Positions 1 to 16,980 are shown, counted from the stretch's first letter. The stretch is 64,000 nt of DNA from an uncultured Rhizobium sp. (GCA_964527775.1 CAZGQS010000009.1:3416-67415), one strand, 5' to 3'. A program made the numbers and translations. Notes: generated from the letters alone by a model not told the origin.

Positions 1-3000
1 AAGGACAACTTCCAATTTTGAACAGAGCATTGAAGAATGAAACAGTTATTGGTTTGTTACCAACAGGTGGCGGTAAATCTTTAACTTATCAATTAGCAGC
101 ATTGTTGCAACCAGGAATTACTATCATCATCGACCCCATTCGCTCTCTAATGGTTGATCAGTATGAAGGGTTGCTAGACATTGGCATTGACAAATGCGAT
201 TTCATCAATTCAATCTTGACAAGAGAAGAAAAAGTTTTTGTTCAAAATAAAGTTTTGCCTCACGGCAAAACTCAATTTCTTTTTTGTTCTCCTGAAAGAT
301 TGGTTATTCAAGAATTCAGAGAGGCGCTGAAAAAAACAAATGAGAACGGTTTTTTCTTTTCCTATTGCGTGATTGATGAAGCACATTGCGTTTCCGAGTG
401 GGGCCATGATTTTAGAACACCATATTTAAACTTAGGGGAAAATGCAATTAGACATTGCTATACTAAAGACACAAAAATTGAAATTGAAGAAGGGTTAGAA
501 GTAATTCATAATCCAATTCCAATTTTCGGTTTGACAGCAACAGCTTCCTTTGATGTTTTGTCAGACATTGAAAGAGAATTGAAATTAAAACGTAATGACG
601 GCAAGGCCGTCATTCGTTATGAGAACGCAGTACGAGATGAAATAAACTACCAAATACATCCAATAACCATTATTGCTGAAAATGGTGTGCAAGTCAATAA
701 AAAAACAGTAGGTGAAAAAAAATTGCAGCGAACGCAAACAATTATAAATCACATCAATGAACCAGATAAACTGCTATTAAAATACAATAGCCCGAATGTG
801 TATTCGGAAATTTTACAAAAGACATATAGGGATTATTTGCCCAATGCAGAACAATCTGTAATCACTGAAACAGAATTTATTGAAAGCAATACGGACAGAA
901 TAATATTAAGCTTTGAAAACGATTTGCCATTTCAGAAAAGCGACAAAGAAAAATTCAATTACGGTGTAATTATTTTTTGTCCTCATAAGACAAGTGAATT
1001 GGGAGTAGAAACATATGTTCAACAATTGCAGTCGGCAAACGACAAAATAGTTTACTTCAAAGGAAATGGAAACTCACTTGATAAAGACGAGCATGACAAA
1101 CTATCATTTGATAATTTAAAATTGTTTAAAGAAAATGACGCATCAGTAATGGTAGCTACGAAAGCATTTGGAATGGGAATAGACAAACCAAATGTTCGCT
1201 TGACAATTCACAGCAACATATCTTCGTCAATTGAGTCTTTTGTTCAAGAAAGCGGAAGAGCAGGAAGAGACGGAAAAACTTCTTTGTCAATAATTCTTTA
1301 CAATAACCAAATTAACAGAGACAGAGAGGTTTTAGACCATTTCTATAAAACATCATTCAAAGGTGCTGATAAAGAACGAAGTATAATTTGGGAATTGAGA
1401 AACAAAATAACTTTCCCAAACATTACAAACTTGCGATTGCTGAGTGATAGACTAAGCGAAGTATTTGACGAGGAATTGAATTTGAAATTAGGAGGAATCA
1501 CAAAAGGTAAACAAGGCGAACCCGATAGAGATTGGACACATATAATATTCATTAAAAACAGTCAAGATGTTAATATCGGTTGGATTAACATTGAAAATAA
1601 AACAACAACAAATTTTGCAAGCAGAGAATTAGCAAATGAATATCTTGAAATTATAAATTCATTTATTCCTAATTTTCAAACGATAAGCAAAGAGGAAATA
1701 AGAATTTTCTTAAATTTAAAAACAGCCAACACTGACGCACATACAGGACTTGAAAAAATATTAAGTGATATTGACTTTGACTTCTCATTGCCAATAGTAA
1801 TTCCCTTCAAGAATATGTTTTTCAGCAAAGGGGAAAAAGGCAGTTCTGAAATTACAGACGAGTTTGCATTTGAAAAACACTACGACTATTTCAAACAGAG
1901 CCTTCAAATGCAATCGATATTGAAAAATAACGGAATTAACGAATCTGACTTGAAAAGTAAATTCAAAGACGCAATTAAATGGGATAATAGTTATGAGGAC
2001 TTTATAAATGGTTTGCCTTTGACAAATGAAGAAGATAGATCTCTTTTACTTGAAACGGCAATGATGAAGGTTAAGTATTACATACCAAGAAACGAAGACG
2101 ACACCGCCAAAGCCATCTATCGACTTACGAGTATCAATATTATTGACACTTACACAATAGAATATCAACAACAGGTTTACAAGGTTAAACTCAGTAAGAA
2201 ATCAGATAAACAGTATTTTGACAATTACCAATCCTTAGTTGAAAGATATACTTCAAAAGAAGAAGCACGAAAGCTAAGAGAGAAATGCGAACTCGATTTA
2301 TATGAGAATGAAAAATCAACAGTAATAAGTAAGTGTTTGGAGCATCTAACAAATTTCATTTACGATAAAATTGCTGACAAACGAAAACGAGCAATTGATG
2401 ATATGGTTAGTTTGTGTGATGAAACAATTGGGATTTCAGACCCAATTGAGCAATCAAAAAAAATCAAAGACAACATCTACTATTATTTCAATGCCAAATA
2501 TTCAAGAGAGGGAAATGTTGCACAAACAGAAACTGGGGATATTATTGATGCAGATTTGAATAAAGATTTTGTTTATAATTTGCCGATTGAAGAAACCGTT
2601 TGGAAATACATTGAAAAGATTATTGACTTTGATGATAATGGAGCACAAGTAAACAACATAAAACATTTGCGGGGTGCGACAATGCGAATGTTGAGAGGGA
2701 CTAGCGGAGCGCCTCAATTTAACATCTTGAAATCATATTCACTTTATCTTCTTTCACCAAACTCACCACAGTTGGTTACAGAAGCGATTGAAGAATTGAA
2801 AATTGGAATCAATAGCTGGAGTGAACTTGAACCAGATACTTTTATCTTTGAAAAGTTCTTTTTGCGGTTTAAAGAAAATATCAAAAAACACACCGGAGAA
2901 ATTCATGATGAATTATTTGGTGATGTTGATGACGACTACTACACAACAAAGAATTTGAATTGGCTCAATAAGTTCAACCATAGATTTTTAATAGATTATA

Positions 3001-3026
3001 ATAATGCCATCACAACAAGTAATTGA
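1..3026 (+). CDS. RecQ-family (DEAH) superfamily-2 helicase with an approximately 560-aa uncharacterised C-terminal region. It is 5'-partial: the reading frame is open to the window edge, and the Walker A motif lies only about 20 codons from position 18.
   Basis: The RecQ helicase motifs are present in order: motif I LLPTGGGKSLTYQLAAL, motif II CVIDEAHCVSEWGHDFRTPY, motif III IFGLTATAS, motif IV/V GVIIFCPHKTS...VMVATKAFGMGIDKPNVRLTIH, and motif VI QESGRAGRDG. There is no Cys4 RQC zinc motif and no obvious HRDC domain after motif VI. The frame has no stop codon between positions 3 and 17, so the true start lies upstream of the window. Confidence 0.7.
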   Translation, partial: GQLPILNRALKNETVIGLLPTGGGKSLTYQLAALLQPGITIIIDPIRSLMVDQYEGLLDIGIDKCDFINSILTREEKVFVQNKVLPHGKTQFLFCSPERLVIQEFREALKKTNENGFFFSYCVIDEAHCVSEWGHDFRTPYLNLGENAIRHCYTKDTKIEIEEGLEVIHNPIPIFGLTATASFDVLSDIERELKLKRNDGKAVIRYENAVRDEINYQIHPITIIAENGVQVNKKTVGEKKLQRTQTIINHINEPDKLLLKYNSPNVYSEILQKTYRDYLPNAEQSVITETEFIESNTDRIILSFENDLPFQKSDKEKFNYGVIIFCPHKTSELGVETYVQQLQSANDKIVYFKGNGNSLDKDEHDKLSFDNLKLFKENDASVMVATKAFGMGIDKPNVRLTIHSNISSSIESFVQESGRAGRDGKTSLSIILYNNQINRDREVLDHFYKTSFKGADKERSIIWELRNKITFPNITNLRLLSDRLSEVFDEELNLKLGGITKGKQGEPDRDWTHIIFIKNSQDVNIGWINIENKTTTNFASRELANEYLEIINSFIPNFQTISKEEIRIFLNLKTANTDAHTGLEKILSDIDFDFSLPIVIPFKNMFFSKGEKGSSEITDEFAFEKHYDYFKQSLQMQSILKNNGINESDLKSKFKDAIKWDNSYEDFINGLPLTNEEDRSLLLETAMMKVKYYIPRNEDDTAKAIYRLTSINIIDTYTIEYQQQVYKVKLSKKSDKQYFDNYQSLVERYTSKEEARKLREKCELDLYENEKSTVISKCLEHLTNFIYDKIADKRKRAIDDMVSLCDETIGISDPIEQSKKIKDNIYYYFNAKYSREGNVAQTETGDIIDADLNKDFVYNLPIEETVWKYIEKIIDFDDNGAQVNNIKHLRGATMRMLRGTSGAPQFNILKSYSLYLLSPNSPQLVTEAIEELKIGINSWSELEPDTFIFEKFFLRFKENIKKHTGEIHDELFGDVDDDYYTTKNLNWLNKFNHRFLIDYNNAITTSN

Positions 3027-3705
3027 AAAATTAGAAAAACTTCAAATCGAACTTGAAACAGTTTCTGTTGCAATAAATCATATCGAGGATGCATCTAAGG
3101 TTGCTAAGTCATCCGCTGATATATTGAATAAAATCCCCGAATTGCTTACTGAATTAAAATCAGTTGAGGAAAAACACCGCGAAGATTTACAACAAGCTCT
3201 CAAAGAAAAAATAGATGCTATTGAAAAACAATTGCAATTATTATTGACCGAGTTAAAAGACAAAGTCAAGCAAGTAAACCAACTCATAGAGGATACAAAG
3301 AAATTAGAGATAGCAATTAATGAGTACGTATTAGAAGTGAGGAAGATAAATTTCCCGGAAAGATTAGACAAAATTGACAACCAAATTTCATCAATCAATA
3401 TTGGAGTTGGTAATCTTCAAACAACTATTCAGCGTTCACACGAAAAAATCGAAAAGGGATTTGAAGACACCAACCAAAATTTAAAAATCGGCTTTTCCTC
3501 TAACAATGAGAGTATCAAACGATCTCAGGAGAAGGTTACTTCTGATTTATTGTCACTTGCAAACGACAAGACATCTGAAATTATTCAAAAATTAACAGAA
3601 CAAAACCAGTTGTTGAAAAACGAAGTCACAACAAACAGAATAATTCAGATTGTGGGACTAACAATAATTTCAATCATTCTCATTTATGTTGCAGTCAAGA
3701 ACTAA
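3004..3705 (+). CDS. Coiled-coil protein with a single C-terminal transmembrane anchor, translationally coupled to the upstream helicase gene (23-nt overlap)
   Basis: Heptad-rich, charged sequence (EKLEKLQIELETV..., KQLQLLLTELKDKVKQVNQLIEDTKKLEIA) ends in a hydrophobic stretch IIQIVGLTIISIILIYVAV. The ATG at 3004 overlaps the stop of the helicase ORF at 3026. Confidence 0.45.
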   Translation: MPSQQVIEKLEKLQIELETVSVAINHIEDASKVAKSSADILNKIPELLTELKSVEEKHREDLQQALKEKIDAIEKQLQLLLTELKDKVKQVNQLIEDTKKLEIAINEYVLEVRKINFPERLDKIDNQISSINIGVGNLQTTIQRSHEKIEKGFEDTNQNLKIGFSSNNESIKRSQEKVTSDLLSLANDKTSEIIQKLTEQNQLLKNEVTTNRIIQIVGLTIISIILIYVAVKN

Positions 3706-3762
3706 CGTCTGGGCAATTGTAAGTAAATTTTATTTTTTTCAATAGTCAATTAAGGGGCTATC

Positions 3763-3836
3763 TATAATACTCCCTGAATCTTGGACCAGTGGTGTGGTTG
3801 AATAATTGAGTCCAACAACTGGGGAGTATTATAATC
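3763..3836. mobile_element. 74-bp MITE-like element: a pair of imperfect terminal inverted repeats related to the ends of the degraded IS3-family element at 6953-7796
   Basis: TATAATACTCCCTGAATCTTGGACCAG (3763-3789) is mirrored by ...CCAACAACTGGGGAGTATTATA (3811-3836). The same TATAATACTCCCTGAATCCTGGACCAG terminus recurs at 6953 and, inverted, at 7785-7796. Confidence 0.5.
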
Positions 3837-3927
3837 TGTTTCGCAATTAATTATCTAAGACAGGTAAATTTGAGTATGTCAAAATATCGTAAACATTAGA
3901 GCAAAGTAATCATAATTAAAAAAAATC

Positions 3928-4290
3928 ATGAACTTGAATTTTATTTTCGAATCTTCCGACCATCTTCGTTATGAAAATGGCAAAATAGTTTCAGGGCCGC
4001 ATGGTGGTGCGCCAAGAGCAGTAAAAGTAGAGCCAAACATCAGTGGCAATGAAGGCCTAACTGTTACAATGTTTAATACAGACGGGCAATTTGTAACTCA
4101 AATGGCTCCTAAGCAAATGAAAATAATCCAACAAACCGAGGAAAAGGTAGTTCTTCGCGGTTACGGACAAGATATGATGGGCCAATCATTTGATGACTAT
4201 GGTTTAACTATTTATTTTAATAATAAACAAGTCTCAAAATGTATTTTGCACATGCACGACAGGAATATTGATATTGAATATTTACCTTAA
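3928..4290 (+). CDS. Hypothetical protein (120 aa)
   Basis: ORF in the AT-rich accessory region; no recognisable motifs. Confidence 0.3.
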   Translation: MNLNFIFESSDHLRYENGKIVSGPHGGAPRAVKVEPNISGNEGLTVTMFNTDGQFVTQMAPKQMKIIQQTEEKVVLRGYGQDMMGQSFDDYGLTIYFNNKQVSKCILHMHDRNIDIEYLP

Positions 4291-4455
4291 AAAAATTTAA
4301 TGAGCCAAACGAAAAACATAACAGAACAAAGCATGACTCATTTAATGACAATAAAAGGAAATTTAAACGTTAGTGAAATCGAAGCTGAATTAATTAACTT
4401 AATTAGTTACTTAATTCTTCGTCAATCTTTTGAGATTTGATGGAAATTAGATTAT

Positions 4456-4677
4456 TTGGATGATAATAAAATTCAAGAAGTTATTAATAATAATGAAGAT
4501 GCTATGGACGAGGTAACTGATACTGCGCAAAGATTATTTTCAGGGGAATATACGCAAAATCATGCTTTATTTGGAATGCAAGTCGTTATAATGAATTTGA
4601 AATTAATGACCACCATTGATTATTCAGAATATTTAAAAAATTACTTTTCTATTACTCATAAAGTGACAATAAAATGA
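4456..4677 (+). CDS. Hypothetical small acidic protein (73 aa)
   Basis: Short ORF with no motifs; the coding call is tentative. Confidence 0.2.
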   Translation: MDDNKIQEVINNNEDAMDEVTDTAQRLFSGEYTQNHALFGMQVVIMNLKLMTTIDYSEYLKNYFSITHKVTIK

Positions 4678-4835
4678 TTTTACAGTGCATACTGACTATT
4701 AGTGATTTATTTTTTCCGTTGCACGCTTAACGTGATTTTAAAAAATCAAAATAGTGTAAAAAAAATTATTTGTGATAGTTAGTTTAATAATTATCACATT
4801 TTTATTAAGTAAAATTTTAAGTTAAATAAAAAAAT

Positions 4836-5462
4836 ATGACAAAGACAATTAGTGAAATTTTAGCAATAATTGAAAATGAAAAAGCTCGCAATCTTGGTTC
4901 TGCAGATTTTCTAAAAATGATAAATTTAAGATTTTTAAACACTCAACAAAACATTATTGACCAGGCAAATCAATATGTTCACGATGGATTAAATGCTTTT
5001 CAAAACGATCAAAATGAGATAGCCAAAATATACTATCAAAAAGCTATTGATTTATTTCCAACATGTAATTCTTATTTTTTATTGTCAATGGTAGAATATG
5101 ACGAAGGTAATTATTATCAAGCTTGGCGTTGGTCTATTGCGGCATCGATGTTTATTAATAAAGCTGAGTTTAATTATTGGAACGCAATCCTGTTAAGAAA
5201 TTTTTGTGTTTTAAACTTGCTTTCCACGAACAACGAAGATTGGCAGAATCAACAAAACAATTTGCATGGAATTATAAAGGATTACATAATTCCTAATTTC
5301 GAATTCTATGAAACTCAAAGAAAAAATTATGGATTAACAGAACTATTTAAAACTGAATTTGAGAATTTAGAAATAGATAAAAATACAATACAATCTTTGC
5401 TTCCTCCAATTGGTTGGATATACAATTTTATCCAAGATAATAAAACTGAACTTCCGAATTAA
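4836..5462 (+). CDS. Hypothetical protein, possibly with TPR-like helical repeats
   Basis: The segment YYQKAIDLFPTCNSYFLLSMVEYDEGNYYQAWRWSIAA resembles a TPR-like helical hairpin. A 7-bp inverted repeat sits upstream at 4771-4798. Confidence 0.4.
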   Translation: MTKTISEILAIIENEKARNLGSADFLKMINLRFLNTQQNIIDQANQYVHDGLNAFQNDQNEIAKIYYQKAIDLFPTCNSYFLLSMVEYDEGNYYQAWRWSIAASMFINKAEFNYWNAILLRNFCVLNLLSTNNEDWQNQQNNLHGIIKDYIIPNFEFYETQRKNYGLTELFKTEFENLEIDKNTIQSLLPPIGWIYNFIQDNKTELPN

Positions 5463-5569
5463 TTACATAATTAGCAGTCTTATTCGAATATTATATTAAA
5501 AGCAAAATGTACGAAAATACAAAAAATGGGAATAGATGTAACATATTAGAATAAATAAAAATAAAAACT

Positions 5570-6883
5570 ATGGATTTTTCATTTCACATACAACAAGGAC
5601 AAAAACTATTAGAAAAGAAAGATGCTATTTTAGTCAAAAAAGCTCTTGAACATTTCATAAAAGCCAATGAAATGACCGATGAAGAAGATATTGGAAAACC
5701 AAAAATACTGTATCTATTAGCATTTGGAAATTTAATAATTGGACAGATCGAACAATCATATAGACTTGCATTTAAAGCGAAACGTAGTATAGATGTAGCT
5801 ATTGAAAACAGTATCTTTTCAATGAATAATATGCGACAAATGCTTGGAGAAAATGATATTGATGCTTTGATCCATCATATTGAAGAAAAATATGCTCAAG
5901 TTGTTTATCAAATAGATACAGAAGATGACAATTTTGACGAAAATGTTTTAGATTTTTCACATATTAGTCAAATGTATCCATCTGTTGTCACTAAAGATAT
6001 AGAGCCAGAATTTTCAATTAACGAAACGGAATTGGCTAAAATGAGCTTTACTGAACATTCTGCACTTTCTAAAAAATGTGCAGAAAATGGTGATCTTGAA
6101 TCTCTTTTAACAATTTCAAAGTATCGCTTTATACATGGTTCAGCGGGAACAAATGAATTTGATTTCCCCATTATGTGTTATTATTATGGACGGTTATCCA
6201 GGATTGAAGAATTAAAAGAGTTATTAATCGAAAAACAATTCCATTTGTTTTTACTGCCAGATTCTTGCAAAGAATTAGCCCAAAATTTACTAAATATTGG
6301 TTTGAAATTTCCACATTTAAACGAACAAGAAATTTCTTACCTTCAACAAAAATACTGTGACTCCAAAACTTACCAAGTGTTAGACGCCATTATGTTCGAC
6401 AGCGATAAACTTTCAAGACCAATTAAAAAATTTGATACTAATTTACTGCGAACTAAAAACACTGAATTTTCAAGGGATTTATTGCTGGATGTCTTTAGCC
6501 ACTTTTCAGCAAATGAGGACCTTGATGACGGATATTCTGAACTTTATGTATATAGTCGAATTAAAAATAATATTATTCGCAAAAAACATGAACACGTTGG
6601 CTTGGGAGAATATTGCATATTCGATCCAATTCTTTCAAATGAATTCTATAACATTTTGAAGAGAAAATACGGAATAGAATGCGCAGATTATTTCGCAGAA
6701 ATACTTTCCTCAGATGACGACTTAGAGAGTTTTAAAACAGATGACTTTTACATTCTTGATGCAAAAAGAATAGAAGACGTAGCGAATGACTATTTTCAAA
6801 ATCCTTCTAAAGTTGAAGACTTGAAGATTGAAATTGCTCAACTATGGCTAAATAAAATTAACTCACGTGAAATAAAATTATAG
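5570..6883 (+). CDS. Hypothetical protein (437 aa) with a helical-repeat N-terminus
   Basis: Long ORF ending 70 bp before the IS-end repeat at 6953; no catalytic motifs recognised. Confidence 0.4.
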   Translation: MDFSFHIQQGQKLLEKKDAILVKKALEHFIKANEMTDEEDIGKPKILYLLAFGNLIIGQIEQSYRLAFKAKRSIDVAIENSIFSMNNMRQMLGENDIDALIHHIEEKYAQVVYQIDTEDDNFDENVLDFSHISQMYPSVVTKDIEPEFSINETELAKMSFTEHSALSKKCAENGDLESLLTISKYRFIHGSAGTNEFDFPIMCYYYGRLSRIEELKELLIEKQFHLFLLPDSCKELAQNLLNIGLKFPHLNEQEISYLQQKYCDSKTYQVLDAIMFDSDKLSRPIKKFDTNLLRTKNTEFSRDLLLDVFSHFSANEDLDDGYSELYVYSRIKNNIIRKKHEHVGLGEYCIFDPILSNEFYNILKRKYGIECADYFAEILSSDDDLESFKTDDFYILDAKRIEDVANDYFQNPSKVEDLKIEIAQLWLNKINSREIKL

Positions 6884-7017
6884 CTAAAAGCTAAAAATCA
6901 CGAGAATACATATTATATCAGTGCTGTCCGGTTAACTTTTTTTCAATCCCTTTATAATACTCCCTGAATCCTGGACCAGAAGTTTAGTTAAAAAATCACT
7001 TAATTTGACTAAACGAT

Positions 7018-7194
7018 ATGACCAAACAAACCCGACGCAAATTCACGCCTGAATTCAAGGCAAACGTTGCATTAGAAGCAGCCAAAGACCAAATCACCTT
7101 GGCTCAGTTGTCGCAAAAATTTGAAGTAAACGCTGTAACCATTTCAAAGTGTAAATCAGAGTTTTTGGCGAATTTTATCCAGTTCGAATTTTAG
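7018..7194 (+). pseudogene. IS3-family transposase OrfA N-terminal fragment (helix-turn-helix region), truncated
   Basis: The translation MTKQTRRKFTPEFKANVALEAAKDQITLAQLSQKFEVNAVTISKCKSEFLANFIQFEF* matches the conserved IS3/IS150 OrfA N-terminus (...RRKFTPEFKAKVALEA...LAQ...V....IS.WKKEFL). The conserved Trp is replaced by Cys and the frame terminates early. Confidence 0.6.
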
Positions 7195-7465
7195 GTTCAC
7201 TTACATTTCCAATGTAAAAGAAACGGAAAATAGCGAACCAGAGGTGCCTGTGGAGAAGCTTCATTATGCGCAAATTGGCAAGATCAAAGTAGAGCTAGAC
7301 TTTCTAAAAAAAAGTGCAAAGAAATTGGGAATACCCGAGAGCGAATAGAAGCCGTCAAACTGAAACGAAGTCCCACTTCGCAGACAATGCGAATTGCTTT
7401 GTATTCCACGCAGTTCGTTGTACTATGCACCAATACCTGAAAAGCCTGAGAATCTGAAGATGATG

Positions 7466-7720
7466 TCATTGATGGATAAATACTTAACATACCATCCCAC
7501 AGAAGGGGTTTTATCGATGGTGGAAAAGGACGTGCAACAGACAATATTTTGATCGAGAGCTTCTGGAAAACTATCAAATACAATCACATTTACCTCAATC
7601 TTTGCGATACAGGTCTTGAACTATTTAAGGAGTTCAGAACTATATCAAGTGTTATAACTAGAAAAAACACCAAGGCATTGGGATGAAACCCAATAATGCA
7701 TATTACAAATCTTTAAAACA
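7466..7720 (+). pseudogene. IS3-family transposase OrfB (DDE integrase) C-terminal fragment, frameshifted
   Basis: The fragments ...GKGRATDNILIESFWKTIKYNHIYLNLCDTGLELFKEFRTI... and ...KNTKALG.NP match the ESFWKTLK...Y.T..E...I..YI..YN..R.HQALG tail of IS3 OrfB, interrupted by stop codons. Confidence 0.5.
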
Positions 7721-7824
7721 AAATGCTGCCTAATACAGCGCAAAATATTAAATTAGCATCAATAACCTTTGGGCCCGACAACTAGGGAGTATTATAGTAT
7801 TTTACATGCAACCAAAATAGTTAG

Positions 7825-10800
7825 CTATATTCTTGTCAATCGTTGCGATTCGATTTTGTTAATATCTTGTAATGTTATGTTATTTTCAGTTACTAAATTT
7901 TCAAGAAATGCGCGGTTTAGTAATGTTATATCATTAGACTTTGCCAAAATTGTTGCTGATGAACTGTAATCATTATTGGTTATTATCATCAGTTTAAATT
8001 GTTCTTTAAATCTGTCCTCATAATAATTTTTTCCTGTGTAAATTTCTTGTATTGCTTCAATTCCAACTAAGGATTTTGTTTGTTTAGCTTGAATAAGATA
8101 ATTTTCTCCCTTTTTTAAAAGCACAATATCAACACCCTTGTCATTAGAATACGGTGTTAGATATACTTCAAAACCTTGTGTTTTGTATAATGCTCCGATT
8201 GTTGCTTCAAACAAATTGGGGTTTAACCGATCAATTTCAGTGAGGGTTTGAAATTTGGGTTTACTTTCGGTTTTTGTTCCAAAAATAGTTCCAAATATTT
8301 CATCAGGTGTAATTTCAGCTTGTTCTGTTGGAAATAAAGTATTACTTGCCAAAGATTTTTTGTTATTCAATAAAGCATCAAGAACTTCATCAAAAGATTT
8401 CATTCTATTACCTTCTTGGTCTTTCATTTCTTCTGGAAATATTGCCATAGGATAATAGACAAAAACATCTTTTTGTTGACCTATACGATAAGCCCTGTCA
8501 GTCGCTTGTTCTTCTTTCGCAGGATTCCAATGCCGTGTGTAATGAACAATATGATTGGCTTTGGTTACATTCAAGCCAACACCTGCTGAAATGGGCGACA
8601 TAATGATCACATTGAAGCCTTCATCCTCCTGAAAACGGTCAATGGTTTGTTGTCGGCTTAGTTTAGATTTCCCTTGAAGCTGTTTTGTAGTTGGTGTATC
8701 TCCATTTATAATACTTGTGAAAACTCCAAAGGTATCGTAAACAACTTTCTGCAACATCTTTTGAGTTTCTCGCCTGTCAGCAAAAATAATTACTTTTTCA
8801 TTTTTGGATTTTATATCCGCTAAAATACCCACGGTAGTTTGAAGTTTAGAGGAACTATTTATAAGTTCATCACTAGAAAACTTCAAAATTTGACTTTCTA
8901 ATAAATACGGATGGTCCGAAATGTCTCTAACTGCCCAAAGTGATTTCAATTTTTGATTTCTTTTTTCCACACCTTCCAATTCTGAATCATTCGCCATTTC
9001 AATTTCCTGCTTGTATCTATCTATTTGAACGGTCGGCATCACTCTTTTAATTCTTGAATTTTGATCATCGTGCTTTTTAGGCAAATCTTTTGCGACATCA
9101 CTTTTTAATCTTCTTTTTATAAATATTCCAATGTTGTTGCGAAGTTGTTCCGTTAATGTTCTTATGTCTGTATTTTCATCACTCAAAGGTTTTTGGTATT
9201 CTTTCGCAAAATCTTTGGCATTGCCTAAAAGTCCTGGAACTGCAAAGTCCATTAAACACCAAATATCAACCAAGGTGTTTTCTACTGGTGTTCCTGTAAT
9301 TGCAATTTTAAAATCGGCTTTCAATGCTTTACTTGCATTGGTTATAAGCGTTCCTGGTGTTTTTATTTTTTGTGCTTCGTCCAATGCTATTATTGCAAAA
9401 TCAACCAATCCTAAACTGATTTGATAAGACCTTAGTGTTTCATAATTAGTTAAAATAATTTGTTTGAATTGTAGCCGTTTTGCATCTTGTTGGTTATGAA
9501 TTGGGTTATTTTCTTTTGTTAAAGATACACCACTATACAGTTTACACAATGGTAAATTCTTTGGACTAAAAAATTTCTCATATTCGTTTTCCCAATTTTC
9601 AAGCAAGCTAACGGGGGCCACAATTAAGTATGGTTTGCCTTCATTATAACTTTGGCTGTGCCATTCTATGAAATACAAAAGTTGCAAGGTTTTACCTAAA
9701 CCCATATCATCAGCAAGCAATCCACCAGCAAAATTTTCTTTAAACAAAGATTGCAGCCAAGAAACACCTTCTTTTTGATGTTCTTTTAAGGTGATGTTAT
9801 TTTTTAAATTTGGTATTTCATAGAAGCTATGTTTCAAATTTTCGGGCAACTCATTTCCATTTGAAAACTCGGTAAGTTCTGCATTTTCTTTAATTATCAG
9901 AACTTCGTGATCTGTTTGCTTCTCATGTTTTATTGGTTTTCTTGGATTTTCAAATTGCTTTTTCGCAATCTTGATAAATTTTACAGCATCTTCAATTGGA
10001 ATTTCAGCGTTTTCCCATACAACGGTTTGCTTTTTTTCATTTATAGCTTTTTCCTTCTGCTCAATGAAGTCATTTAGTTTTTCAGGAGTTTTGAAATAAA
10101 TTTTCTTTTCTCCGTGAACCTTATCTTTTATTACAATGCCTGGAATCCATTGTGATTTATATGGACTTGCAAAAGGGTAGAACTTTGGACTATAAACGCC
10201 AATTTCTTTTACTCTGTCGCTGTAAAAAACAGTAAAATCAATTACATCATCATCAAAAAACAATTCTGGGTGCTCAATGATTTTCTGAATTGCTCCTTGG
10301 TCTGAAATTTTTCTATGAGTTTTAATTTTTCGAAGTTCAACTTTCTGATTTTCTGTAATAACTACTCTTGTTGTTTCGCCATTGTTTGAAGAAACAGGAT
10401 AAACATCACGTATCATTGGCAACTTATCGAAAGTATTGGTAAAACCTATTGCGTTATCAATTTCAACTGATGGTATAATTTCAAAAATGCCATTATTGAA
10501 ATCAACATCCAATTTAATTTTTTCAGGAACATATAATTCCTGATTGTTTAAAAATTGCTCCAAGGTCAACCCACTTTCTTTTGAAAGTGATTTTAATTCT
10601 GATAATTTTTTAAGATTAATAAAATTCCCTTTTTCGCTATCGGATAATTCGTTGAATTCGTCAATCGCTTGACAGAGCAAATACTGGTTTTCGGAAAGTA
10701 GATACACGTTTTCTTCTACTTGTAAAATTGCTCCATTTCGAATTGTCTTTAATCTTGTTCCGTTCGGAGCAAAGTCATAAAATCCATATTTGAACTTAAA

Positions 10801-11094
10801 AGAATTATGTGTTAAAATTCCGCTTGATTCTACAAAAATCTCATAAGGATAACCTTCAGGCAAATCCAATATTTGCTTGTCTATATCATTTAACCTTAAA
10901 ATATCAATACTATCAACTTCACAAGTGTGTTCCGTGTAATCCGCTAATCCGTTATCATACAATTCTTTAAGAATTGCAAGTTGAGATAGATTTTCTGATT
11001 GTAGTTTTTTCCATTCAGAAACAGAAATATTGCTCTCAGTTTCATTTAGGAAAAAGAAAGAAAATTTGTTGTTAGCTTGAATATATTTAAACAT
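7825..11094 (-). CDS. ZorD-like SNF2-family helicase/ATPase (1089 aa) with an N-terminal domain of about 420 aa of unknown function and a C-terminal Mrr-like PD-(D/E)xK restriction-endonuclease domain
   Basis: SNF2 motifs: LKEHQKEGVSWL...LLADDMGLGKTLQ (motif I), IIALDEAQKIKTPGT (DEAQ motif II) and HYTRHWNPAKEEQATDRAYRIGQQKDVFVY (motifs V/VI). The C-terminus FEATIGALYKTQGFEVYLTPYSNDKGVDIVLLKKGENYLIQAKQTK fits the Mrr_cat pattern (S/T.DxGIDhh...hhIQCKR). This is the last gene of a tightly overlapped four-gene operon. Confidence 0.8.
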   Translation of the reverse strand: MFKYIQANNKFSFFFLNETESNISVSEWKKLQSENLSQLAILKELYDNGLADYTEHTCEVDSIDILRLNDIDKQILDLPEGYPYEIFVESSGILTHNSFKFKYGFYDFAPNGTRLKTIRNGAILQVEENVYLLSENQYLLCQAIDEFNELSDSEKGNFINLKKLSELKSLSKESGLTLEQFLNNQELYVPEKIKLDVDFNNGIFEIIPSVEIDNAIGFTNTFDKLPMIRDVYPVSSNNGETTRVVITENQKVELRKIKTHRKISDQGAIQKIIEHPELFFDDDVIDFTVFYSDRVKEIGVYSPKFYPFASPYKSQWIPGIVIKDKVHGEKKIYFKTPEKLNDFIEQKEKAINEKKQTVVWENAEIPIEDAVKFIKIAKKQFENPRKPIKHEKQTDHEVLIIKENAELTEFSNGNELPENLKHSFYEIPNLKNNITLKEHQKEGVSWLQSLFKENFAGGLLADDMGLGKTLQLLYFIEWHSQSYNEGKPYLIVAPVSLLENWENEYEKFFSPKNLPLCKLYSGVSLTKENNPIHNQQDAKRLQFKQIILTNYETLRSYQISLGLVDFAIIALDEAQKIKTPGTLITNASKALKADFKIAITGTPVENTLVDIWCLMDFAVPGLLGNAKDFAKEYQKPLSDENTDIRTLTEQLRNNIGIFIKRRLKSDVAKDLPKKHDDQNSRIKRVMPTVQIDRYKQEIEMANDSELEGVEKRNQKLKSLWAVRDISDHPYLLESQILKFSSDELINSSSKLQTTVGILADIKSKNEKVIIFADRRETQKMLQKVVYDTFGVFTSIINGDTPTTKQLQGKSKLSRQQTIDRFQEDEGFNVIIMSPISAGVGLNVTKANHIVHYTRHWNPAKEEQATDRAYRIGQQKDVFVYYPMAIFPEEMKDQEGNRMKSFDEVLDALLNNKKSLASNTLFPTEQAEITPDEIFGTIFGTKTESKPKFQTLTEIDRLNPNLFEATIGALYKTQGFEVYLTPYSNDKGVDIVLLKKGENYLIQAKQTKSLVGIEAIQEIYTGKNYYEDRFKEQFKLMIITNNDYSSSATILAKSNDITLLNRAFLENLVTENNITLQDINKIESQRLTRI

Positions 11095-12514
11095 TTATTC
11101 CTGCTATATTTTTAAACCAATACTCAAAAACTTGTTCCCATCTTAAATCTCCATCATTATGAGTTAAACGACCTTCTATGTTAGTGTCATTTATACTGTA
11201 TCCAGAACGATAAACAAGCATTGGCATTGAGCCATTTCTTAATTCATCTACACTTTCTAAACGATAATTTAAATTTGGTTTATTATTACCATTCATTTTG
11301 TAAGCATAAAAAGCATAACCAGCATCACTAAATTCAATGAGCATATAGTCTCCTATGTAAAGTATAAATGCCGACACTTCTCTGTTGCTTGAAACAACTT
11401 GAAATCGCCCGTCTAAATATTCTACAATTCTTCTGTCTCTCTTGAGAATATATTTAGTTTGAGTCGGTCCGTAAACTTTAAAAGAAACTCTATTCTTTGA
11501 AGCCACTCTAAGCCAAAAACGTTTTCTTCTTTCATCATTGATACAAACTCTAAAAAAAATATCAATGAAATGTTTAGCAATCCATTCGTCTAGAATATTT
11601 CTTGCTTCAATGATTTCACTTCGTTCAATATCAGTTGCATTTTCAAAAGCACTCCAATTTGAAACATTGCTTGGGTCACCTATTTGAGTAAAAGCAATTC
11701 TTTTTATACTGTCTTGAAGTTCGGAAAATTCAGGCTTATTCGCTTGTATAATTATTTTACTGATTAATCTTTTATTTGTAATTGAACTATTATGTTTAAG
11801 TAAGGCTTGATTCAAATTTTCAATTTCAGTTGATATATTATTTTTGTTCCTTTCGTAATAATTTACAATAACTTTAGAGAAATAGGCATAATCAAACCAC
11901 GATTCAGGAACACCTAATATTTTTGTAGCTTCTTGAATTGGCTTATTAAGTTTTGCTATGGTGTCGCCTAATTCCGAATCTCCATCTTTTAAGTTGAAAA
12001 ATATTTTGTTTTTTTTGAATAAGGCTAATGTATTTCGATTGCCTGAATAATTAACTAATTTTTGACTGATGAAATGCTCTAATTGCTCTAATGATTTCGG
12101 ATATCTTGTTTCCCAATTCCTCAAAAAGCAATCTATCAAACCAACCAAAAATGAATCCCGCCAGTTTGATTCTAACAATGTCAAAGCATATTTCAACTCG
12201 TTTTCATTGATAAAAATGGAAGTTAAACTCTGTTCTGAATGATTCAAGGAATAGGTAAGCGTTCTTAATTCTCTTCGTTCGAAACTCACATCTGTTATTA
12301 TAATAGATTTTTTAAATTTTCTAAACACTTGAGGTATCAGATTATTCCCTGAAAATGTAAACGAATTTGCTCCAACTTCTTCTGATATTTTTTGAAGTTT
12401 GTCAATTCTATGTTCATTCAAAGATGTAACGGCAATTGGAATAATCTTTTGTGCCGTCTGCTGAAATGAAGTCGGTGAAAAATGAAATTGCAAAATGTCC
12501 TGGATCGTTAACAT
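11087..12514 (-). CDS. Hypothetical 475-aa protein occupying the ZorC position of the Zorya-like operon (unverified possible EH-signature-like protein)
   Basis: It overlaps the upstream gene by 1-3 nt and the downstream SNF2 gene by 8 nt. I recognise no motif. It contains a single LEH triplet, and its size is comparable to ZorC. The assignment is positional only. Confidence 0.4.
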   Translation of the reverse strand: MLTIQDILQFHFSPTSFQQTAQKIIPIAVTSLNEHRIDKLQKISEEVGANSFTFSGNNLIPQVFRKFKKSIIITDVSFERRELRTLTYSLNHSEQSLTSIFINENELKYALTLLESNWRDSFLVGLIDCFLRNWETRYPKSLEQLEHFISQKLVNYSGNRNTLALFKKNKIFFNLKDGDSELGDTIAKLNKPIQEATKILGVPESWFDYAYFSKVIVNYYERNKNNISTEIENLNQALLKHNSSITNKRLISKIIIQANKPEFSELQDSIKRIAFTQIGDPSNVSNWSAFENATDIERSEIIEARNILDEWIAKHFIDIFFRVCINDERRKRFWLRVASKNRVSFKVYGPTQTKYILKRDRRIVEYLDGRFQVVSSNREVSAFILYIGDYMLIEFSDAGYAFYAYKMNGNNKPNLNYRLESVDELRNGSMPMLVYRSGYSINDTNIEGRLTHNDGDLRWEQVFEYWFKNIAGINV

Positions 12515-12515
12515 A

Positions 12516-14051
12516 CTAGTTTCTTCTTCCGTTCAACTTACTCAGTTGTTCAGTTAGTTCTTCTAAAATATCTTCTTGTTTTGACGATGCTCCTGCAAGT
12601 GATTCCGCTGTCTTGGTCAATGCATCTGTGTATTTAACTAAATAAGTTTCAAGACTTCCTCCCACAGTCGCTTGGTAATCTTTTAACCCAATTGTTATTT
12701 TTCCAAAAATTTCTTGTAGTCCTTTTTCTATAATTTCAAATTTCTGTGCGTAATCGGCAGAAACAATTTTTGCTGTTTCTAAAGATTTTTGAATTTCAGT
12801 AATTGTATTGGAATTGTTTTGTAAGAACTGGTTTGAGTGCTTAGAAAACTCGTTTTGCGATTCCCCGAATTTACTTGATGATGAGTTTATTTCCTGAGAA
12901 ATATTTCTAAAAGTTGAAATCACCGTTTCAAGTTCTGATTGAGCTTGATTAAGTTTTGAAATGCTACCGTTTACTTCCATGGATAGTCCATTCATTTTTT
13001 CAATACTTAAATTGAAAGCACTCAAAAGATTTTCAGAAACTTGTAAGTTTTTAGATTGTTCGGTTAATAATGTTTGTTGTCCAGTTTGTAAACCTCCGAC
13101 CTGTTCTCTCAATATTTCACTCATATGTTCAACCTGCATTTTCATTTGGTTGGTAGATTCTTCGGATTGAGAAAGTGTTTGCCTAGAAATTTGTTGCACA
13201 ACGTCTTGTAAACCCCTAAAGTTCTCATTGAGGTTATCTGTCATTTTCTGCAATTTTAAGGGGAAATCCGATAACGATCCACCTGCTTGACCAAGTAATC
13301 CAGCCAATCGTTCCATTTCATTTTTAGTATCTCCGCTCATTGAAGTTTTAAATTCTTCGACCATTTTACCCATAGATTCCTGCAGATCTTTAACAATATT
13401 TTGGGTCATATCAGTTGCTGGGTCTTTGAGTTTGTTGCCTAAACTCTCAATTTCGGCTTTCACCAATTTTAACTCAGCTACCACTCCTTCTGCTGGATTA
13501 TTTAAAATTTCCTCAAAACCTGCTGAAATCGTTAATGCTAAATCAGAAGAAAATGTTTGTAAGGATGTTGATTGCTTTTGAGATTCTTTATAAATATCAC
13601 GGAAAATATTTCCTGGTCTAATTGTGTTCCCGTTTTCATCGATAGAAGAGAAATTATTTCTTAATTCTTCAATGACTTCGATAAGTTTGTTTATGGCTTT
13701 AGTTTCATCACTTAAAACTCCTTTTTCATTTTTGTTTTTTACAAATGCTATTCGTTTTGAAAAGATAATGGAAAGCGCTATTCCAACTATAGAAGCAAAA
13801 AATGCTGTTTTTAATCCCTGCAGTAATGTTGGAATACTTTTTTCAATGTCATCAGGATTAAAGAACCATAAGCCGTAAGCAATACCACCAAAAGTCCCTA
13901 AAATACCTATTGTAGTAAACATTGAAGGAATTAATTCTAAGTCATTTAGATTTACTTCACTGTAGTTTTTCTTCGCAATATTGAGTACATAGATTCCATA
14001 AATAAGATATGAAAACATCGATATTGTGATAAAGATTTCAACTATGTTCAT
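12516..14051 (-). CDS. ZorA-like MotA/TolQ/ExbB-family proton-channel protein: a compact three-TM N-terminal domain followed by an approximately 410-aa coiled-coil cytoplasmic tail
   Basis: TM2-TM3 signature IPSMFTTIGILGTFGGIAYGL...LLQGLKTAFFASIVGIALSIIF, compared with ExbB/TolQ LLGLLGTVWGI...GIAEALLATAIGLVAAIPA. The remainder is long heptad-rich, low-complexity helix. The start overlaps the stop of the upstream MotB-like gene by 4 nt. Confidence 0.7.
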   Translation of the reverse strand: MNIVEIFITISMFSYLIYGIYVLNIAKKNYSEVNLNDLELIPSMFTTIGILGTFGGIAYGLWFFNPDDIEKSIPTLLQGLKTAFFASIVGIALSIIFSKRIAFVKNKNEKGVLSDETKAINKLIEVIEELRNNFSSIDENGNTIRPGNIFRDIYKESQKQSTSLQTFSSDLALTISAGFEEILNNPAEGVVAELKLVKAEIESLGNKLKDPATDMTQNIVKDLQESMGKMVEEFKTSMSGDTKNEMERLAGLLGQAGGSLSDFPLKLQKMTDNLNENFRGLQDVVQQISRQTLSQSEESTNQMKMQVEHMSEILREQVGGLQTGQQTLLTEQSKNLQVSENLLSAFNLSIEKMNGLSMEVNGSISKLNQAQSELETVISTFRNISQEINSSSSKFGESQNEFSKHSNQFLQNNSNTITEIQKSLETAKIVSADYAQKFEIIEKGLQEIFGKITIGLKDYQATVGGSLETYLVKYTDALTKTAESLAGASSKQEDILEELTEQLSKLNGRRN

Positions 14052-14770
14052 TTTTGTTCAATTTTTTTAAGTGCTTCGTTAATAATGTCTTCGCTAGTTG
14101 TTACAATTCTAAATTCAACTCGTCTTGATTTGTCATTGTCAATTGGCTGCTTGCTGCCAAATGCTATTTTAAATTCTTTATCTACAGTTCGTCCGTATGA
14201 AAGACCATTGGCTGTCAACCAATACTGTAATCTATCTTTTTTATTTGGTTCTAGATTAATAAAACAATCTTGTTGTCTCAGAAATCCTAAAACATTTCTT
14301 GCTCTGTTTTGAGACAATTCCATATTGTCAATGTAGGGGTCGCTCGTTTTATTAATGGGTTTAGTATTTGTGTGTCCTTCGATACGAATTTCTGCAATTT
14401 TATCAATGTATTTATCTTGTAAAACAACTCTTAAATATTTAGGCAGAAACTCTCTTAAAATACTTTGGAAAGTAGTAGTAACATCTGATTTTCCTTCATC
14501 AAACAAAACCTGTGGATTTGTAAATTTTATTGACAAATCATTGTCAAGTTTTAAATTCCATTTTGCAAAATCTTTTTTAAAAGCTTCATTTAATTCGATA
14601 TATAAAGCGACTTTTGATTCTTCATAGTCCTTAAATATTTGATTTTGTTCCTTCTGTCGCTTTTCCATCAATGCCATATAAGAAATAGACATGAAAAGAA
14701 AAATCACCATTAAAACTGTCATAAGGTCGGCCAAGGGAATCCAATGACTTTCTTTCTTCGTTCCTGACAT
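14048..14770 (-). CDS. ZorB-like MotB/OmpA-family protein (N-terminal TM plug with the conserved Asp, plus a C-terminal OmpA-like peptidoglycan-binding domain)
   Basis: HWIPLADLMTVLMVIFLFM matches the MotB IAYADFMTAMMAFFLVMW motif, including the conserved Asp. IRIEGHTNTKP...NMELSQNRARNVLGFL matches the OmpA_C signature (GHTD...N..LS..RA..V). It is the first gene of the minus-strand operon. Confidence 0.75.
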   Translation of the reverse strand: MSGTKKESHWIPLADLMTVLMVIFLFMSISYMALMEKRQKEQNQIFKDYEESKVALYIELNEAFKKDFAKWNLKLDNDLSIKFTNPQVLFDEGKSDVTTTFQSILREFLPKYLRVVLQDKYIDKIAEIRIEGHTNTKPINKTSDPYIDNMELSQNRARNVLGFLRQQDCFINLEPNKKDRLQYWLTANGLSYGRTVDKEFKIAFGSKQPIDNDKSRRVEFRIVTTSEDIINEALKKIEQK

Positions 14771-15303
14771 TTATTTCTCTGTATTATTTAAGAATGTGGA
14801 ATGTAATTTTGTGCGATGGGTTGCAATTCTTTTGGTTTTGCGAAAGCGTATAATTGCCTATTCATTTTTTTAGTCTTTTTAATTTAGCATTGTCTATGTT
14901 TTAGTGACAGCTAATTCAGTTATACTCTCAATGATAATTCGCTTTGGGATTCAATAGGGCCTTTTTGCGCAATTTCATTTAACATATAATCCCTCCAAAA
15001 TTAATCAAAATCAAGAAAATAACCATATCGGTTGATAATAACCTGCAATGGTAAATAATAGTCAACTAGCATCCAACAATCATCTCAAATATTGTCTACT
15101 CAAAAGGAAAAATAAATTAAAACTCCATCGGCATTCACGCTGCAATGACCGTCTCAGAAATGATTAACAGTTTCGATAAAGCTGATTCCATTAGACCAAG
15201 ATGGCGATCACTTTTGGATCATTAGCAAATGTGATGGTCTATGCAGCTGACTCTGCCGGAGTTGAATATGTGATCAACGGTTTCGACAAATTATCCGGTT
15301 AGA

Positions 15304-16083
15304 TTAGTTAAAAAATTGCCCTCGTTCAGTTGGTTTAGATAAATTCATCCAATAAATGACCACAGGCTCCAACTCTTCTGATTTTCCATTGGAATTTACA
15401 TCTTTACGAGCAAAAATGTATAAATAGTCATTAATGTGATCATATTCAGATTTAATCACATTTAGATTTTTGGGAATTAGTTCAGATATTTTATCGCCTG
15501 ACATATCAAATAGATATAACCTTCTCAAGTCCTTATCATTGATAAAACTATCCTTATTTGTATCTTCGTCATACGCTGAAACCATGATGTAATCTCGTAA
15601 TATACGTTTACCTTTTAATGTATCTATTGTTTCGGTTGGATAATAAATAGTGTTTATTAACAATGGTTTATTAAACAATGCTTTTTGTTTTTTTTGATTT
15701 AGATCATGGATGTATACATTTACCATTTTACGCCCATAAACTGCTCTAAAACCCGGAATTAAGTTATTATTCCAGTTATCGTTTGTTATACCTGGGGCGG
15801 GATAAGAGTAATGAAAATCAGGTGAACCAGAATAGAATCCATCAGTGTAATTGTTTTTCAGCATCTGAAAAATAGGCGTAATTCGAATGTTTGGATATCT
15901 AGTGATTAAAATGTTTTGGGGACGTGAGGCTACATTACTTGCATTTGATGGAATCTCATTGCAATCAACACTCGAACCCTCTGTTGCTCTTGTAAGAGTT
16001 TGTCTCCTACTCTTCTTTTGATTATCAGAACAGCTCAATATTAAACATATACTTAAAAGGCGAAAAACGATTGTGATCTTCAT
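15304..16083 (-). CDS. Hypothetical lipoprotein (signal peptide plus lipobox Cys)
   Basis: The N-terminus MKITIVFRLLSICLILSCSDNQ has an LSC lipobox; no other motifs. Confidence 0.45.
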   Translation of the reverse strand: MKITIVFRLLSICLILSCSDNQKKSRRQTLTRATEGSSVDCNEIPSNASNVASRPQNILITRYPNIRITPIFQMLKNNYTDGFYSGSPDFHYSYPAPGITNDNWNNNLIPGFRAVYGRKMVNVYIHDLNQKKQKALFNKPLLINTIYYPTETIDTLKGKRILRDYIMVSAYDEDTNKDSFINDKDLRRLYLFDMSGDKISELIPKNLNVIKSEYDHINDYLYIFARKDVNSNGKSEELEPVVIYWMNLSKPTERGQFFN

Positions 16084-16239
16084 TTTATTAGGATTAGTTT
16101 TTTTATTATTCGGATTGCAGCGCTTAGTTATTGATTGGGCTAAAATAGTATTTTACCTATGTATTAAAAAGGGAATTCAGATGAATCTGTTATTAACCCC
16201 AAGGCCAACAACACAACAAATATTATATTCGTATTCATA

Positions 16240-16704
16240 ATGACCATTCAAAACAAGTATATTTTTTTTATTTATAATTCAGATAAAAACGATCTCACAA
16301 CTGAAAAAATAATGAGATGGCGGGATCTGTTCATTAATGAAAACATATACATTGACAGTTGCGGTATTGATTTAGCTCGTGATGAATATTCAGACTATTC
16401 AGACGCTATTAATATAATTTTAAAGTCAACAATTGAAAAATCTGATGTAGTATTTTTACTAATCACAGAAAACACACACCTAGATTCACAAACAATGGAG
16501 CATTTAAAAATAGCCATTGAATGCCGCAAGAAAATTATTGGATTTGTTTCTGAAGCCATCAAAAATCTAAATGATTACTGGCTAAAATTCAGACTGAATT
16601 CTATATTACCTTTGCAAGACGATGTAATTTTAAATCAGATTAAGAATATCAGAAATTCAACTTTTCCAATCCAAAAAGACCGTGATATTCTTGATATCTC
16701 TTAG
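16240..16704 (+). CDS. Hypothetical 154-aa protein with a possible TIR-like / flavodoxin-like fold (STIR/TIR_2-like pattern)
   Basis: KYIFFIYNSDKND resembles the beta-A strand of TIR (xVFISYxxxD). GIDLARDEYSDYSDAINIILKSTIEKSDVVFLLITENTHLDSQTMEHLKIAIE follows the TIR_2 spacing D..G...I...I..S...VVL.S..S..S....E...A. The resemblance is weak and rests on recall only. Confidence 0.3.
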   Translation: MTIQNKYIFFIYNSDKNDLTTEKIMRWRDLFINENIYIDSCGIDLARDEYSDYSDAINIILKSTIEKSDVVFLLITENTHLDSQTMEHLKIAIECRKKIIGFVSEAIKNLNDYWLKFRLNSILPLQDDVILNQIKNIRNSTFPIQKDRDILDIS

Positions 16705-16980
16705 ATAAAGATCATAATAACTCTTGAATAAGTCCGCATTTTTTAATTTATCACCGTACATTAAAAAATTGTAAACATATATATCCTCATTCAGATTGTT
16801 GTTAAATCTAAATTTATCCAAATCGAAGGTTTTTGATATGAAATTGCGTAGATACAGCGGTGAAAGGACTTTCAATTGCATGGCATATTTTATCACCTCT
16901 TCAAATTCTTCTTTATTTAAATTATGTTTACAACTAAACAGAATTACCATGGATTTATAATCTTTGGGATACTTTTTCAT
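16657..16980 (-). CDS. Hypothetical protein (107 aa)
   Basis: ORF overlapping the 3' end of the previous gene by 48 nt; no motifs. Confidence 0.25.
   Translation of the reverse strand: MKKYPKDYKSMVILFSCKHNLNKEEFEEVIKYAMQLKVLSPLYLRNFISKTFDLDKFRFNNNLNEDIYVYNFLMYGDKLKNADLFKSYYDLYLRDIKNITVFLDWKS

Follow-up and report, generated by a model that had tools for sequence, protein, structure and literature searches.

A mobile two-gene cassette encoding a RecQ-type helicase and a tail-anchored membrane protein: a candidate defence or restriction-modification accessory module

Genes embedded within the operons of other defence systems include PrrC in type I restriction-modification (R-M) operons and BrxU in BREX operons. 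In the RqlHI pair, the toxicity of the helicase RqlH resides in its C-terminal PRTase domain, and the partner RqlI is a DprA/MoCo-like protein with a helix-turn-helix (HTH) (PMC4670107; Millman preprint). The locus described here lies at the start of a 64,000-nucleotide stretch of DNA from an uncultured Rhizobium sp. (GCA_964527775.1 CAZGQS010000009.1:3416-67415), referred to as the window, and consists of the 3′ part of a gene for a RecQ-type superfamily 2 (SF2) helicase and an overlapping downstream gene for a small helical membrane protein. The two genes (three in other clades) are read here, with somewhat better than even confidence, as a mobile, membrane-tethered helicase–nuclease module that serves defence or acts as an accessory to R-M systems. 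The anatomy, conservation, gene coupling and genomic context of the cassette are matters of observation and are described first. The features of the cassette in the window are as follows.

1-3026, plus strand: 3.0 kb from the 3′ end of the helicase gene, comprising the final 1007 codons of an open reading frame (ORF) of about 1462 codons.
3-548, plus strand: RecA-like lobe 1 with motifs 0, I, Ia, II (DEAH), the aromatic loop SEWGHDFR and motif III (Pfam, alignment, motifs).
549-965, plus strand: family-specific insertion of 139 residues between motifs III and IV (alignment; no family match).
966-1274, plus strand: RecA-like lobe 2 with motifs IV, V and VI (Pfam Helicase_C, alignment).
1275-3023, plus strand: family-specific C-terminal region, 583 amino acids (aa) after motif VI (no family match).
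3004-3705, plus strand: partner gene, a 233-aa all-helical tail-anchored membrane protein (ORF, structure model, conservation).
3637-3699, plus strand: C-terminal transmembrane (TM) tail anchor of the partner, residues 212-232, RIIQIVGLTIISIILIYVAVK (hydrophobicity).
3706-3762, plus strand: end of the block shared at 96 % identity with the metagenomic contig L086 (blastn; no similarity further on).

The helicase motifs, numbered as residues of the 1007-aa fragment, are as follows.

Residues 1-6: motif 0, GQLPIL.
Residues 20-26: motif I, PTGGGKS.
Residues 125-129: motif II, DEAHC.
Residues 131-138: aromatic loop, SEWGHDFR.
Residues 177-182: motif III, LTATAS.
Residues 322-328: motif IV, VIIFCPH.
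Residues 384-399: motif V, VATKAFGMGIDKPNVR.
Residues 415-424: motif VI, QESGRAGRDG.

The helicase frame is open from base 3 to a TGA at 3024-3026, and its N-terminus lies beyond the window edge. All of RecQ motifs I to VI, reported as intact by an earlier examination of the DNA (the sequence-only reading), were located, together with motif 0, and the ATPase/helicase motifs are at least 90 % conserved across 65 full-length relatives. Pfam finds DEAD at residues 2-147 and Helicase_C at 317-424 of the fragment and nothing else. Of solved proteins, E. coli RecQ (1oyw, E=6e-41, both RecA lobes) is the closest; together with human RECQ5, BLM and RECQ1 it forms a group matched at E of about 1e-41 to 1e-36 over the RecA lobes only. 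Lobe 1 aligns with E. coli RecQ 29-168 and lobe 2 with 268-341; between them, helicase residues 147-353 stand against E. coli RecQ 168-268, leaving about 105 extra residues in the helicase. The sequence-only reading had placed an insertion of about 130 aa between motifs III and IV; the insertion is real, and its size is corrected to about 90 extra residues there and about 105 overall. A scan for promoters and terminators was uninformative.

The 583 residues after motif VI, described earlier as more than 550 aa of uncharacterised sequence, gave no match in Pfam, NCBIfam or PADLOC searches, and a profile of the region gave none against PDB sequences. The absence of the RQC zinc motif and HRDC domain from the helicase fragment was upheld, with no Pfam match at E<=0.01 to RQC (PF09382), RecQ_Zn_bind (PF16124) or HRDC (PF00570), and the four-cysteine RecQ zinc site is absent, since residues 326-762 contain no cysteine. 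In an AlphaFold2 (AF2) model of the region (predicted local distance difference test, pLDDT, 78.5), a beta-rich domain is followed by a winged-helix-like element and, last, by a helical domain. The predicted winged-helix-like element lies at about nucleotides (nt) 2028-2198, some 250 aa further on, and a Foldseek search of the model against the PDB, that element included, returned nothing below E=0.1. Invariant motifs of the region are DTAKAIYRL, RYTS, CLEHLTNFIY..KRKRAIDDM, IYYYFNAKYSR and NIKHLRG. One family member, P0041 from a Phocaeicola vulgatus metagenome-assembled genome, carries a cysteine-rich insertion, CTVCNTRFGFGLCNQTCNKCNKGPCEVQCTFYNQC, downstream of motif VI, and some clades may, to judge from the insertion, have kept or reacquired a zinc-binding element absent from the window protein.

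The start codon of the partner gene (3004) precedes the end of the helicase gene (3026), giving the 23-nt overlap reported earlier, which suggests translational coupling. An AF2 model of the partner (24 homologues) consists of two uninterrupted helices, 4-114 and 117-232 (pLDDT 88), broken at the invariant motif F-P-x-R-L-x-K-x-D-N-Q. The last 21 residues are hydrophobic, with a Kyte-Doolittle mean of 2.7 over the 19 residues IIQIVGLTIISIILIYVAV, after which 2 residues follow, in agreement with the earlier description of a helical protein with a C-terminal TM anchor. Pfam, NCBIfam and PADLOC returned coiled-coil-type noise matches only. Across the helicase, the partner and four ORFs further downstream, these three libraries yielded core-helicase and coiled-coil matches and nothing else but one weak PADLOC match to w208, a downstream neighbour described below.

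The same arrangement recurs across the family. A downstream partner was counted where an ORF of 150-390 aa overlapped or abutted the helicase stop and had its sole hydrophobic segment at the extreme C-terminus. Of 80 related loci, 70 have such a tail-anchored ORF immediately after the helicase; of 429 controls, taken from the same loci as the remaining ORFs of 140-400 aa, 3 qualify. The pairing of the tail anchor with the helicase is thus far beyond chance. Among the ten loci without a called partner, most are cut short at a contig end, are part of a degraded locus or lie just below threshold. The helicase-partner order is the same in three IMG/VR contigs and on a Haliscomenobacter plasmid. 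The partners form five BLAST clusters that hhalign joins at 82-98.7 % probability, mainly via their first 30-100 residues, and this conserved N-terminal segment is likely to be the helicase-binding region.

The N-terminal part of the helicase was traced through close relatives. On L086, a Logan metagenomic contig, positions 6928-10689 are 96.4 % identical to window 1-3762 (blastn). The helicase ORF of L086 is 1462 aa in full, and a 233-aa partner overlaps it by 23 nt, as in the window. Scanning metagenome contigs for exact matches returned only relatives with about 90 % identity over the first 400-450 nt, L084 and L085; L084, about 88-89 % identical to the window, has an intact ORF with 455 aa preceding GQLPILNRAL. 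The part cut off by the window edge thus appears to be mostly the helicase's own N-terminus of about 455 aa. In 36 of 65 helicases, the window clade included, this region contains an insert with the pattern S..E / QR / (R)VDF / E.DG..(Y)H, invariant among 18 aligned family members, which we take to be of the DUF559/Vsr-like restriction-endonuclease (PD-(D/E)xK) type. A second conserved block, ERDVPC ... DL ... YDLVIDIS, precedes motif 0. A homologue search with the nuclease region returned members of the same helicase family only. In L086 a 141-aa ORF (5137-5562) stops 2 nt short of the helicase start codon; no family matched it, and none of the other loci examined has a homologue.

A programmed frameshift or intron at motif I, suspected from split metagenomic copies, was rejected as a general feature; the 65 genome copies, L084 and L086 are intact. 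In several metagenomic copies the gene is broken no more than about 15 nt from the motif I codons: L001 (9930-9950) has a 2-nt insertion after GGGKS-L, L092 (4520-4610) a frameshift within the GGG codons, L002 and L003 (positions 1-30) are contigs ending at motif I with 30 nt of unrelated sequence, and the contig of P0003 is split at motif I with the same frame offset. L091 has scattered frameshifts of the long-read type. Since the genome copies are intact, these interruptions are probably assembly error or decay, despite their clustering at motif I.

The sequence-only reading had raised the possibility of an upstream partner gene beyond the window edge. For the window clade this mostly did not hold: the missing part is mainly helicase, no upstream gene is conserved, and neither an AlkB-like nor a DUF1848 gene was found in its loci. 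In more distant clades the gene directly upstream encodes DUF1848 (33 loci) or an AlkB-like 2OG-Fe(II) dioxygenase, PF13532 (12 loci). The AlkB-like consensus retains H-x-D, the distal H and R, and DUF1848 retains its C-terminal Cys cluster. Among helicases without the nuclease insert, 27 of 29 have a DUF1848 and/or AlkB-like gene in the locus; among those with it, 22 of 36 have neither, and an AlkB-like gene is found in none of the 36. At least one of the three (nuclease insert, AlkB-like gene, DUF1848) is present in 63 of the 65 full-length loci, and they look partly interchangeable.

The cassette is horizontally mobile, with copies in defence islands and within the operons of type I R-M and BREX systems. 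Its spread over phyla is patchy, and the copy in the window belongs to an AT-rich island. The 96 %-identical copy in L086 has different flanks, and its match to the window breaks off 57 nt past the partner stop codon, which points to a mobile unit that ends with the partner gene. Integrases are present in several cassette loci. The cassette lies between pglX and pglZ of type 1 BREX in L050, L058 and L070 and adjoins pglZ-brxL in L080; it lies between hsdM and hsdS-hsdR in L011-L013 and L019 and directly beside hsdM/S/R in L004, L014, L015, L018, L024, L051, L063 and L065. In L004 the R-M system comes ahead of the cassette. It also adjoins AbiE in L001, a DUF1998 helicase on pHALHY02 and Zorya in the window, and other neighbours are Septu PtuAB, McrBC-like AAA5+EVE genes and DUF3427-PLD helicases. 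When the 118 nearest neighbours were scanned with PADLOC, the families that turned up most often were those of type I methyltransferases (up to 8) and of S subunits (5), these per-family counts being a ranking and not a defence-association fraction.

Searches for the family used the C-terminal region of the helicase as query. A word-index search with the C-terminal half returned 49 proteins, mostly fragments, and a HMMER scan of 1.84 billion representatives returned 1069 clusters (defined at 50 % identity) at E<=1e-3 and 348 at E<=1e-30, with members typically of 1400-1780 aa. The helicase is one intact ORF of 1340-1750 aa in 65 loci. Full-length matches are from Bacteroidota (Chitinophagaceae, Flavobacteriales, Cytophagales), and the C-terminal core (DTAKAIYRL ... 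IYYYFNAKYSR ... NIKHLRG) is also found in Bacteroidales, Bacillota, Actinomycetota, Hyphomicrobiales, Opitutales and Cloacimonadota. The domain occurs at 192 places in 185,579 genomes (one per species), or about 0.1 % of species genomes. Given this rarity and the variable contexts, the helicase is accessory and not a universally conserved housekeeping gene. RefSeq labels one plasmid copy "DEAD/DEAH box helicase" and its partner "hypothetical protein".

The AT-rich island, the insertion sequence (IS) relic and the Zorya-like system named in the sequence-only reading were all confirmed in the window. GC content is 0.27-0.36 over 1-17000 and 0.35-0.47 beyond, and the IS3-type relic is marked by HTH_Tnp_1 at 7018-7194. 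The remaining neighbouring features are as follows.

3928-6883, plus strand: recurrent same-strand neighbours w120 (3928-4290), w208 (4836-5462) and w437 (5570-6883), of uncertain membership in the cassette.
7825-11094, minus strand: ZorD (PADLOC).
11087-12514, minus strand: ZorC (PADLOC).
12516-14051, minus strand: ZorA (PADLOC).
14048-14770, minus strand: ZorB (PADLOC).

Relatives of w120, w208 and w437 adjoin the cassette in about ten loci. Pfam found no family match for the three, and the sole PADLOC match was a weak one of w208 to PDC-M13A (E=6.7e-06). The two genes w208 and w120 correspond to halves of one 331-aa protein upstream of the helicase in L086 (3800-4795, in the order w208 then w120); relatives of about 250 aa with the domain order reversed, the w120 domain coming first and a TPR-like part second, are found beside the cassette in L023, L057, L058, L068 and L078, and L017 holds a short fragment. 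The w208/w120 protein is a circularly permuted or split neighbour. The 437-aa w437 corresponds to segments c17 and c29, found as one or two genes beside the cassette in L034, L036, L056 and L061. The Zorya genes run in the order zorB-zorA-zorC-zorD, with B ahead of A; ZorC and ZorD are of type I, while the short ZorA (511 aa) gets its best scores from type II ZorA models. The AT-rich island is closely followed, on its high-coordinate side, by a gene for an ADP-ribosylglycohydrolase (PF03747, E=1.6e-71) at 17581-18537, where GC is 0.39-0.43; before this gene come ORFs at 15304-16083, 16240-16704 and 17233-17565 that have no family match.

The full-length helicase has, in order, the N-terminus of about 455 aa with its nuclease motif and a conserved acidic-motif domain, the RecQ-type SF2 motor, into which about 105 aa are inserted, and the 583-aa C-terminal region. 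In the mechanism proposed for the module, we infer a complex of the two proteins, tethered to the membrane, with a DNA target and a defence phenotype: the cytoplasmic part of the partner would most likely bind the helicase and so hold or gate the helicase–nuclease at the inner membrane; the motor, driven by ATP, would load on incoming or foreign DNA; and the nuclease domain would process the loaded DNA, a task that in other clades may fall to the separate AlkB-like dioxygenase or Fe–S DUF1848 enzyme. The outcome would be defence against phages or plasmids, or help to a neighbouring methylation-based system. A more elaborate version, in which the tethered motor delivers an interchangeable nucleic-acid-processing enzyme, the built-in restriction-fold nuclease in the window clade and a separate AlkB-like or DUF1848 enzyme elsewhere, to incoming DNA and the dioxygenase and DUF1848 versions strip protective base modifications for the host R-M or BREX system, is tentative and on present evidence improbable; if true, the type I R-M or BREX system of the host operon could then act on the invading DNA.

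Several points weigh against a membrane-tethered defence module. The PADLOC search did find matches to the helicase core (DpdF, PsyrT), but neither the helicase nor the partner specifically matches any PADLOC family. The nuclease assignment is drawn from the motif and from sub-threshold Pfam matches in the N-terminus of L056 only (MTES_1575, E=2e-5; DUF559, E=2.5e-3); Pfam gave no match for the N-terminus of L086, the closest relative, and a profile of the N-terminal region returned nothing against PDB sequences. Recurring clusters of recognised defence genes lie within 10 kb in only 24 of 80 loci, a raw count with no genome-wide background rate. Finally, the AlkB-like and DUF1848 neighbours could equally indicate nucleic-acid repair. 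No PADLOC (2023) family describes the module and no paper found in the literature searches does so, although newer DefenseFinder releases or subscription journals may.

Such a repair function, for instance of alkylation damage, would have the helicase expose single strands for the AlkB-like or DUF1848 enzyme and the module travel on mobile islands, with eukaryotic ASCC3-ALKBH3 as an analogue. This fits the RecQ-type motor, the catalytic motifs retained in the AlkB-like consensus and the 41 of 65 full-length loci in which an AlkB-like (PF13532) or DUF1848 gene is the one immediately upstream. The window clade, however, has neither enzyme and carries the nuclease motif instead, the distribution of the cassette is rare and patchy, and repair leaves both the obligatory membrane-anchored partner and the position inside BREX and type I R-M operons unexplained; the explanation is therefore considered unlikely, though it deserves some weight. 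Abortive infection is rated about as low. Here the helicase would sense foreign DNA or replication intermediates and the tail-anchored protein would be a membrane-damaging effector, which suits the universal presence of the tail-anchored partner, the defence context of the pair and a resemblance, at noise level, of the partner's helical repeats to apolipoprotein and ZorA-tail segments. Against this, one TM helix at the C-terminus, followed by just 0-9 residues, would be a weak pore former, and the built-in nuclease or accessory enzymes already supply an effector.

The sequence-only reading had linked the pair to the PsyrTA/RqlHI systems, with the helicase as toxin and the downstream protein as antitoxin. 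The helicase core does match PADLOC PsyrT (E=7e-53) and the two genes overlap in an operon, as rqlHI do (PMC4670107). The match is limited to profile positions 26-201 and a second core stretch, a Pfam search of the helicase fragment for the PRTase domain that carries RqlH toxicity gave no match, no DprA/MoCo-like HTH partner was found, and the partner here is a membrane-anchored helical protein; the link is contradicted by domain content and largely refuted, with very little probability left to it. Still less probable is that the pair belongs to a neighbouring known system, Zorya in the window or a Dpd-type system. In its favour, the best PADLOC names for the helicase are DpdF models (E=7e-68) and zorBACD is 4 kb distant. 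On the other side, the helicase reaches 145.8 bits with NCBIfam DpdF, where the cut-off is 550, and DpdF matches cover the core only; Zorya is on the opposite strand past the IS relic and did not emerge as a recurring neighbour cluster in the other 80+ loci; and the L086 copy ends soon after the partner gene in different surroundings.

If the membrane-tethered helicase–nuclease module is confirmed, a fairly common multi-phylum helicase-based system would join the anti-phage catalogue, unusual in its obligatory tail-anchored membrane partner and its mutually substituting enzymes (nuclease insert, AlkB-like dioxygenase, DUF1848). It would give a testable context for DUF1848 and for an orphan helicase domain of about 580 aa, and a concrete case for why accessory genes enter BREX and type I R-M operons. 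Experiments are made feasible by carriers available in culture: Pinibacter soli MAH-24 (L014), Chitinophaga tropicalis (L017), Pontibacter harenae (L016), Flavobacterium tegetincola (the BREX-embedded L058) and the Haliscomenobacter hydrossis plasmid pHALHY02.

Compared with known systems, the window helicase has the SF2 motor of bacterial RecQ (E. coli RecQ, 1oyw), with motifs 0-VI and the aromatic-rich loop, but differs in the extra residues between the lobes, in long family-specific sequences at both ends (about 455 aa N-terminal, 583 aa C-terminal) and in the lack of Zn-binding cysteines and of RQC or HRDC matches. Against the NCBIfam models it scores 233.6 bits for recQ, where 640.2 is required, and 214.8 against 219.8 for recQ_fam, the latter being borderline because the query lacks about 28 N-terminal core residues. 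Unlike housekeeping RecQ, which is near-universal, the family is accessory and its defence-island contexts vary. With PsyrTA/RqlHI, of which PsyrTA is listed as a defence system, it has in common the RecQ-like core and the overlapping downstream gene, but the window helicase has twice the length and includes a nuclease-like region at its N-terminus. The likeness to DpdF is confined to the core, the N- and C-terminal regions being different; the five ORFs downstream of the helicase gave no Dpd-specific PADLOC match, no Dpd cluster recurs in related loci, and the DpdE matches of the window ZorD are weaker and of a generic SNF2 type. The cassette occupies the same kind of position as PrrC- and BrxU-type genes (hsdM–hsdS/hsdR; pglX–pglZ) with different proteins, and no anticodon-nuclease or GmrSD-type domains were detected in the cassette proteins. 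From type I Zorya it differs in having a single tail anchor, no MotAB-like channel and a RecQ-type instead of an SNF2 motor; the ZorA matches of the partner (E 1e-3 to 1e-8) are coiled-coil noise, and in other loci the cassette occurs without a recognised Zorya cluster. What the two appear to have in common, as analogy and not homology, is a logic in which a membrane part with a long helical cytoplasmic portion is combined with an SF2 helicase-nuclease in defence islands.

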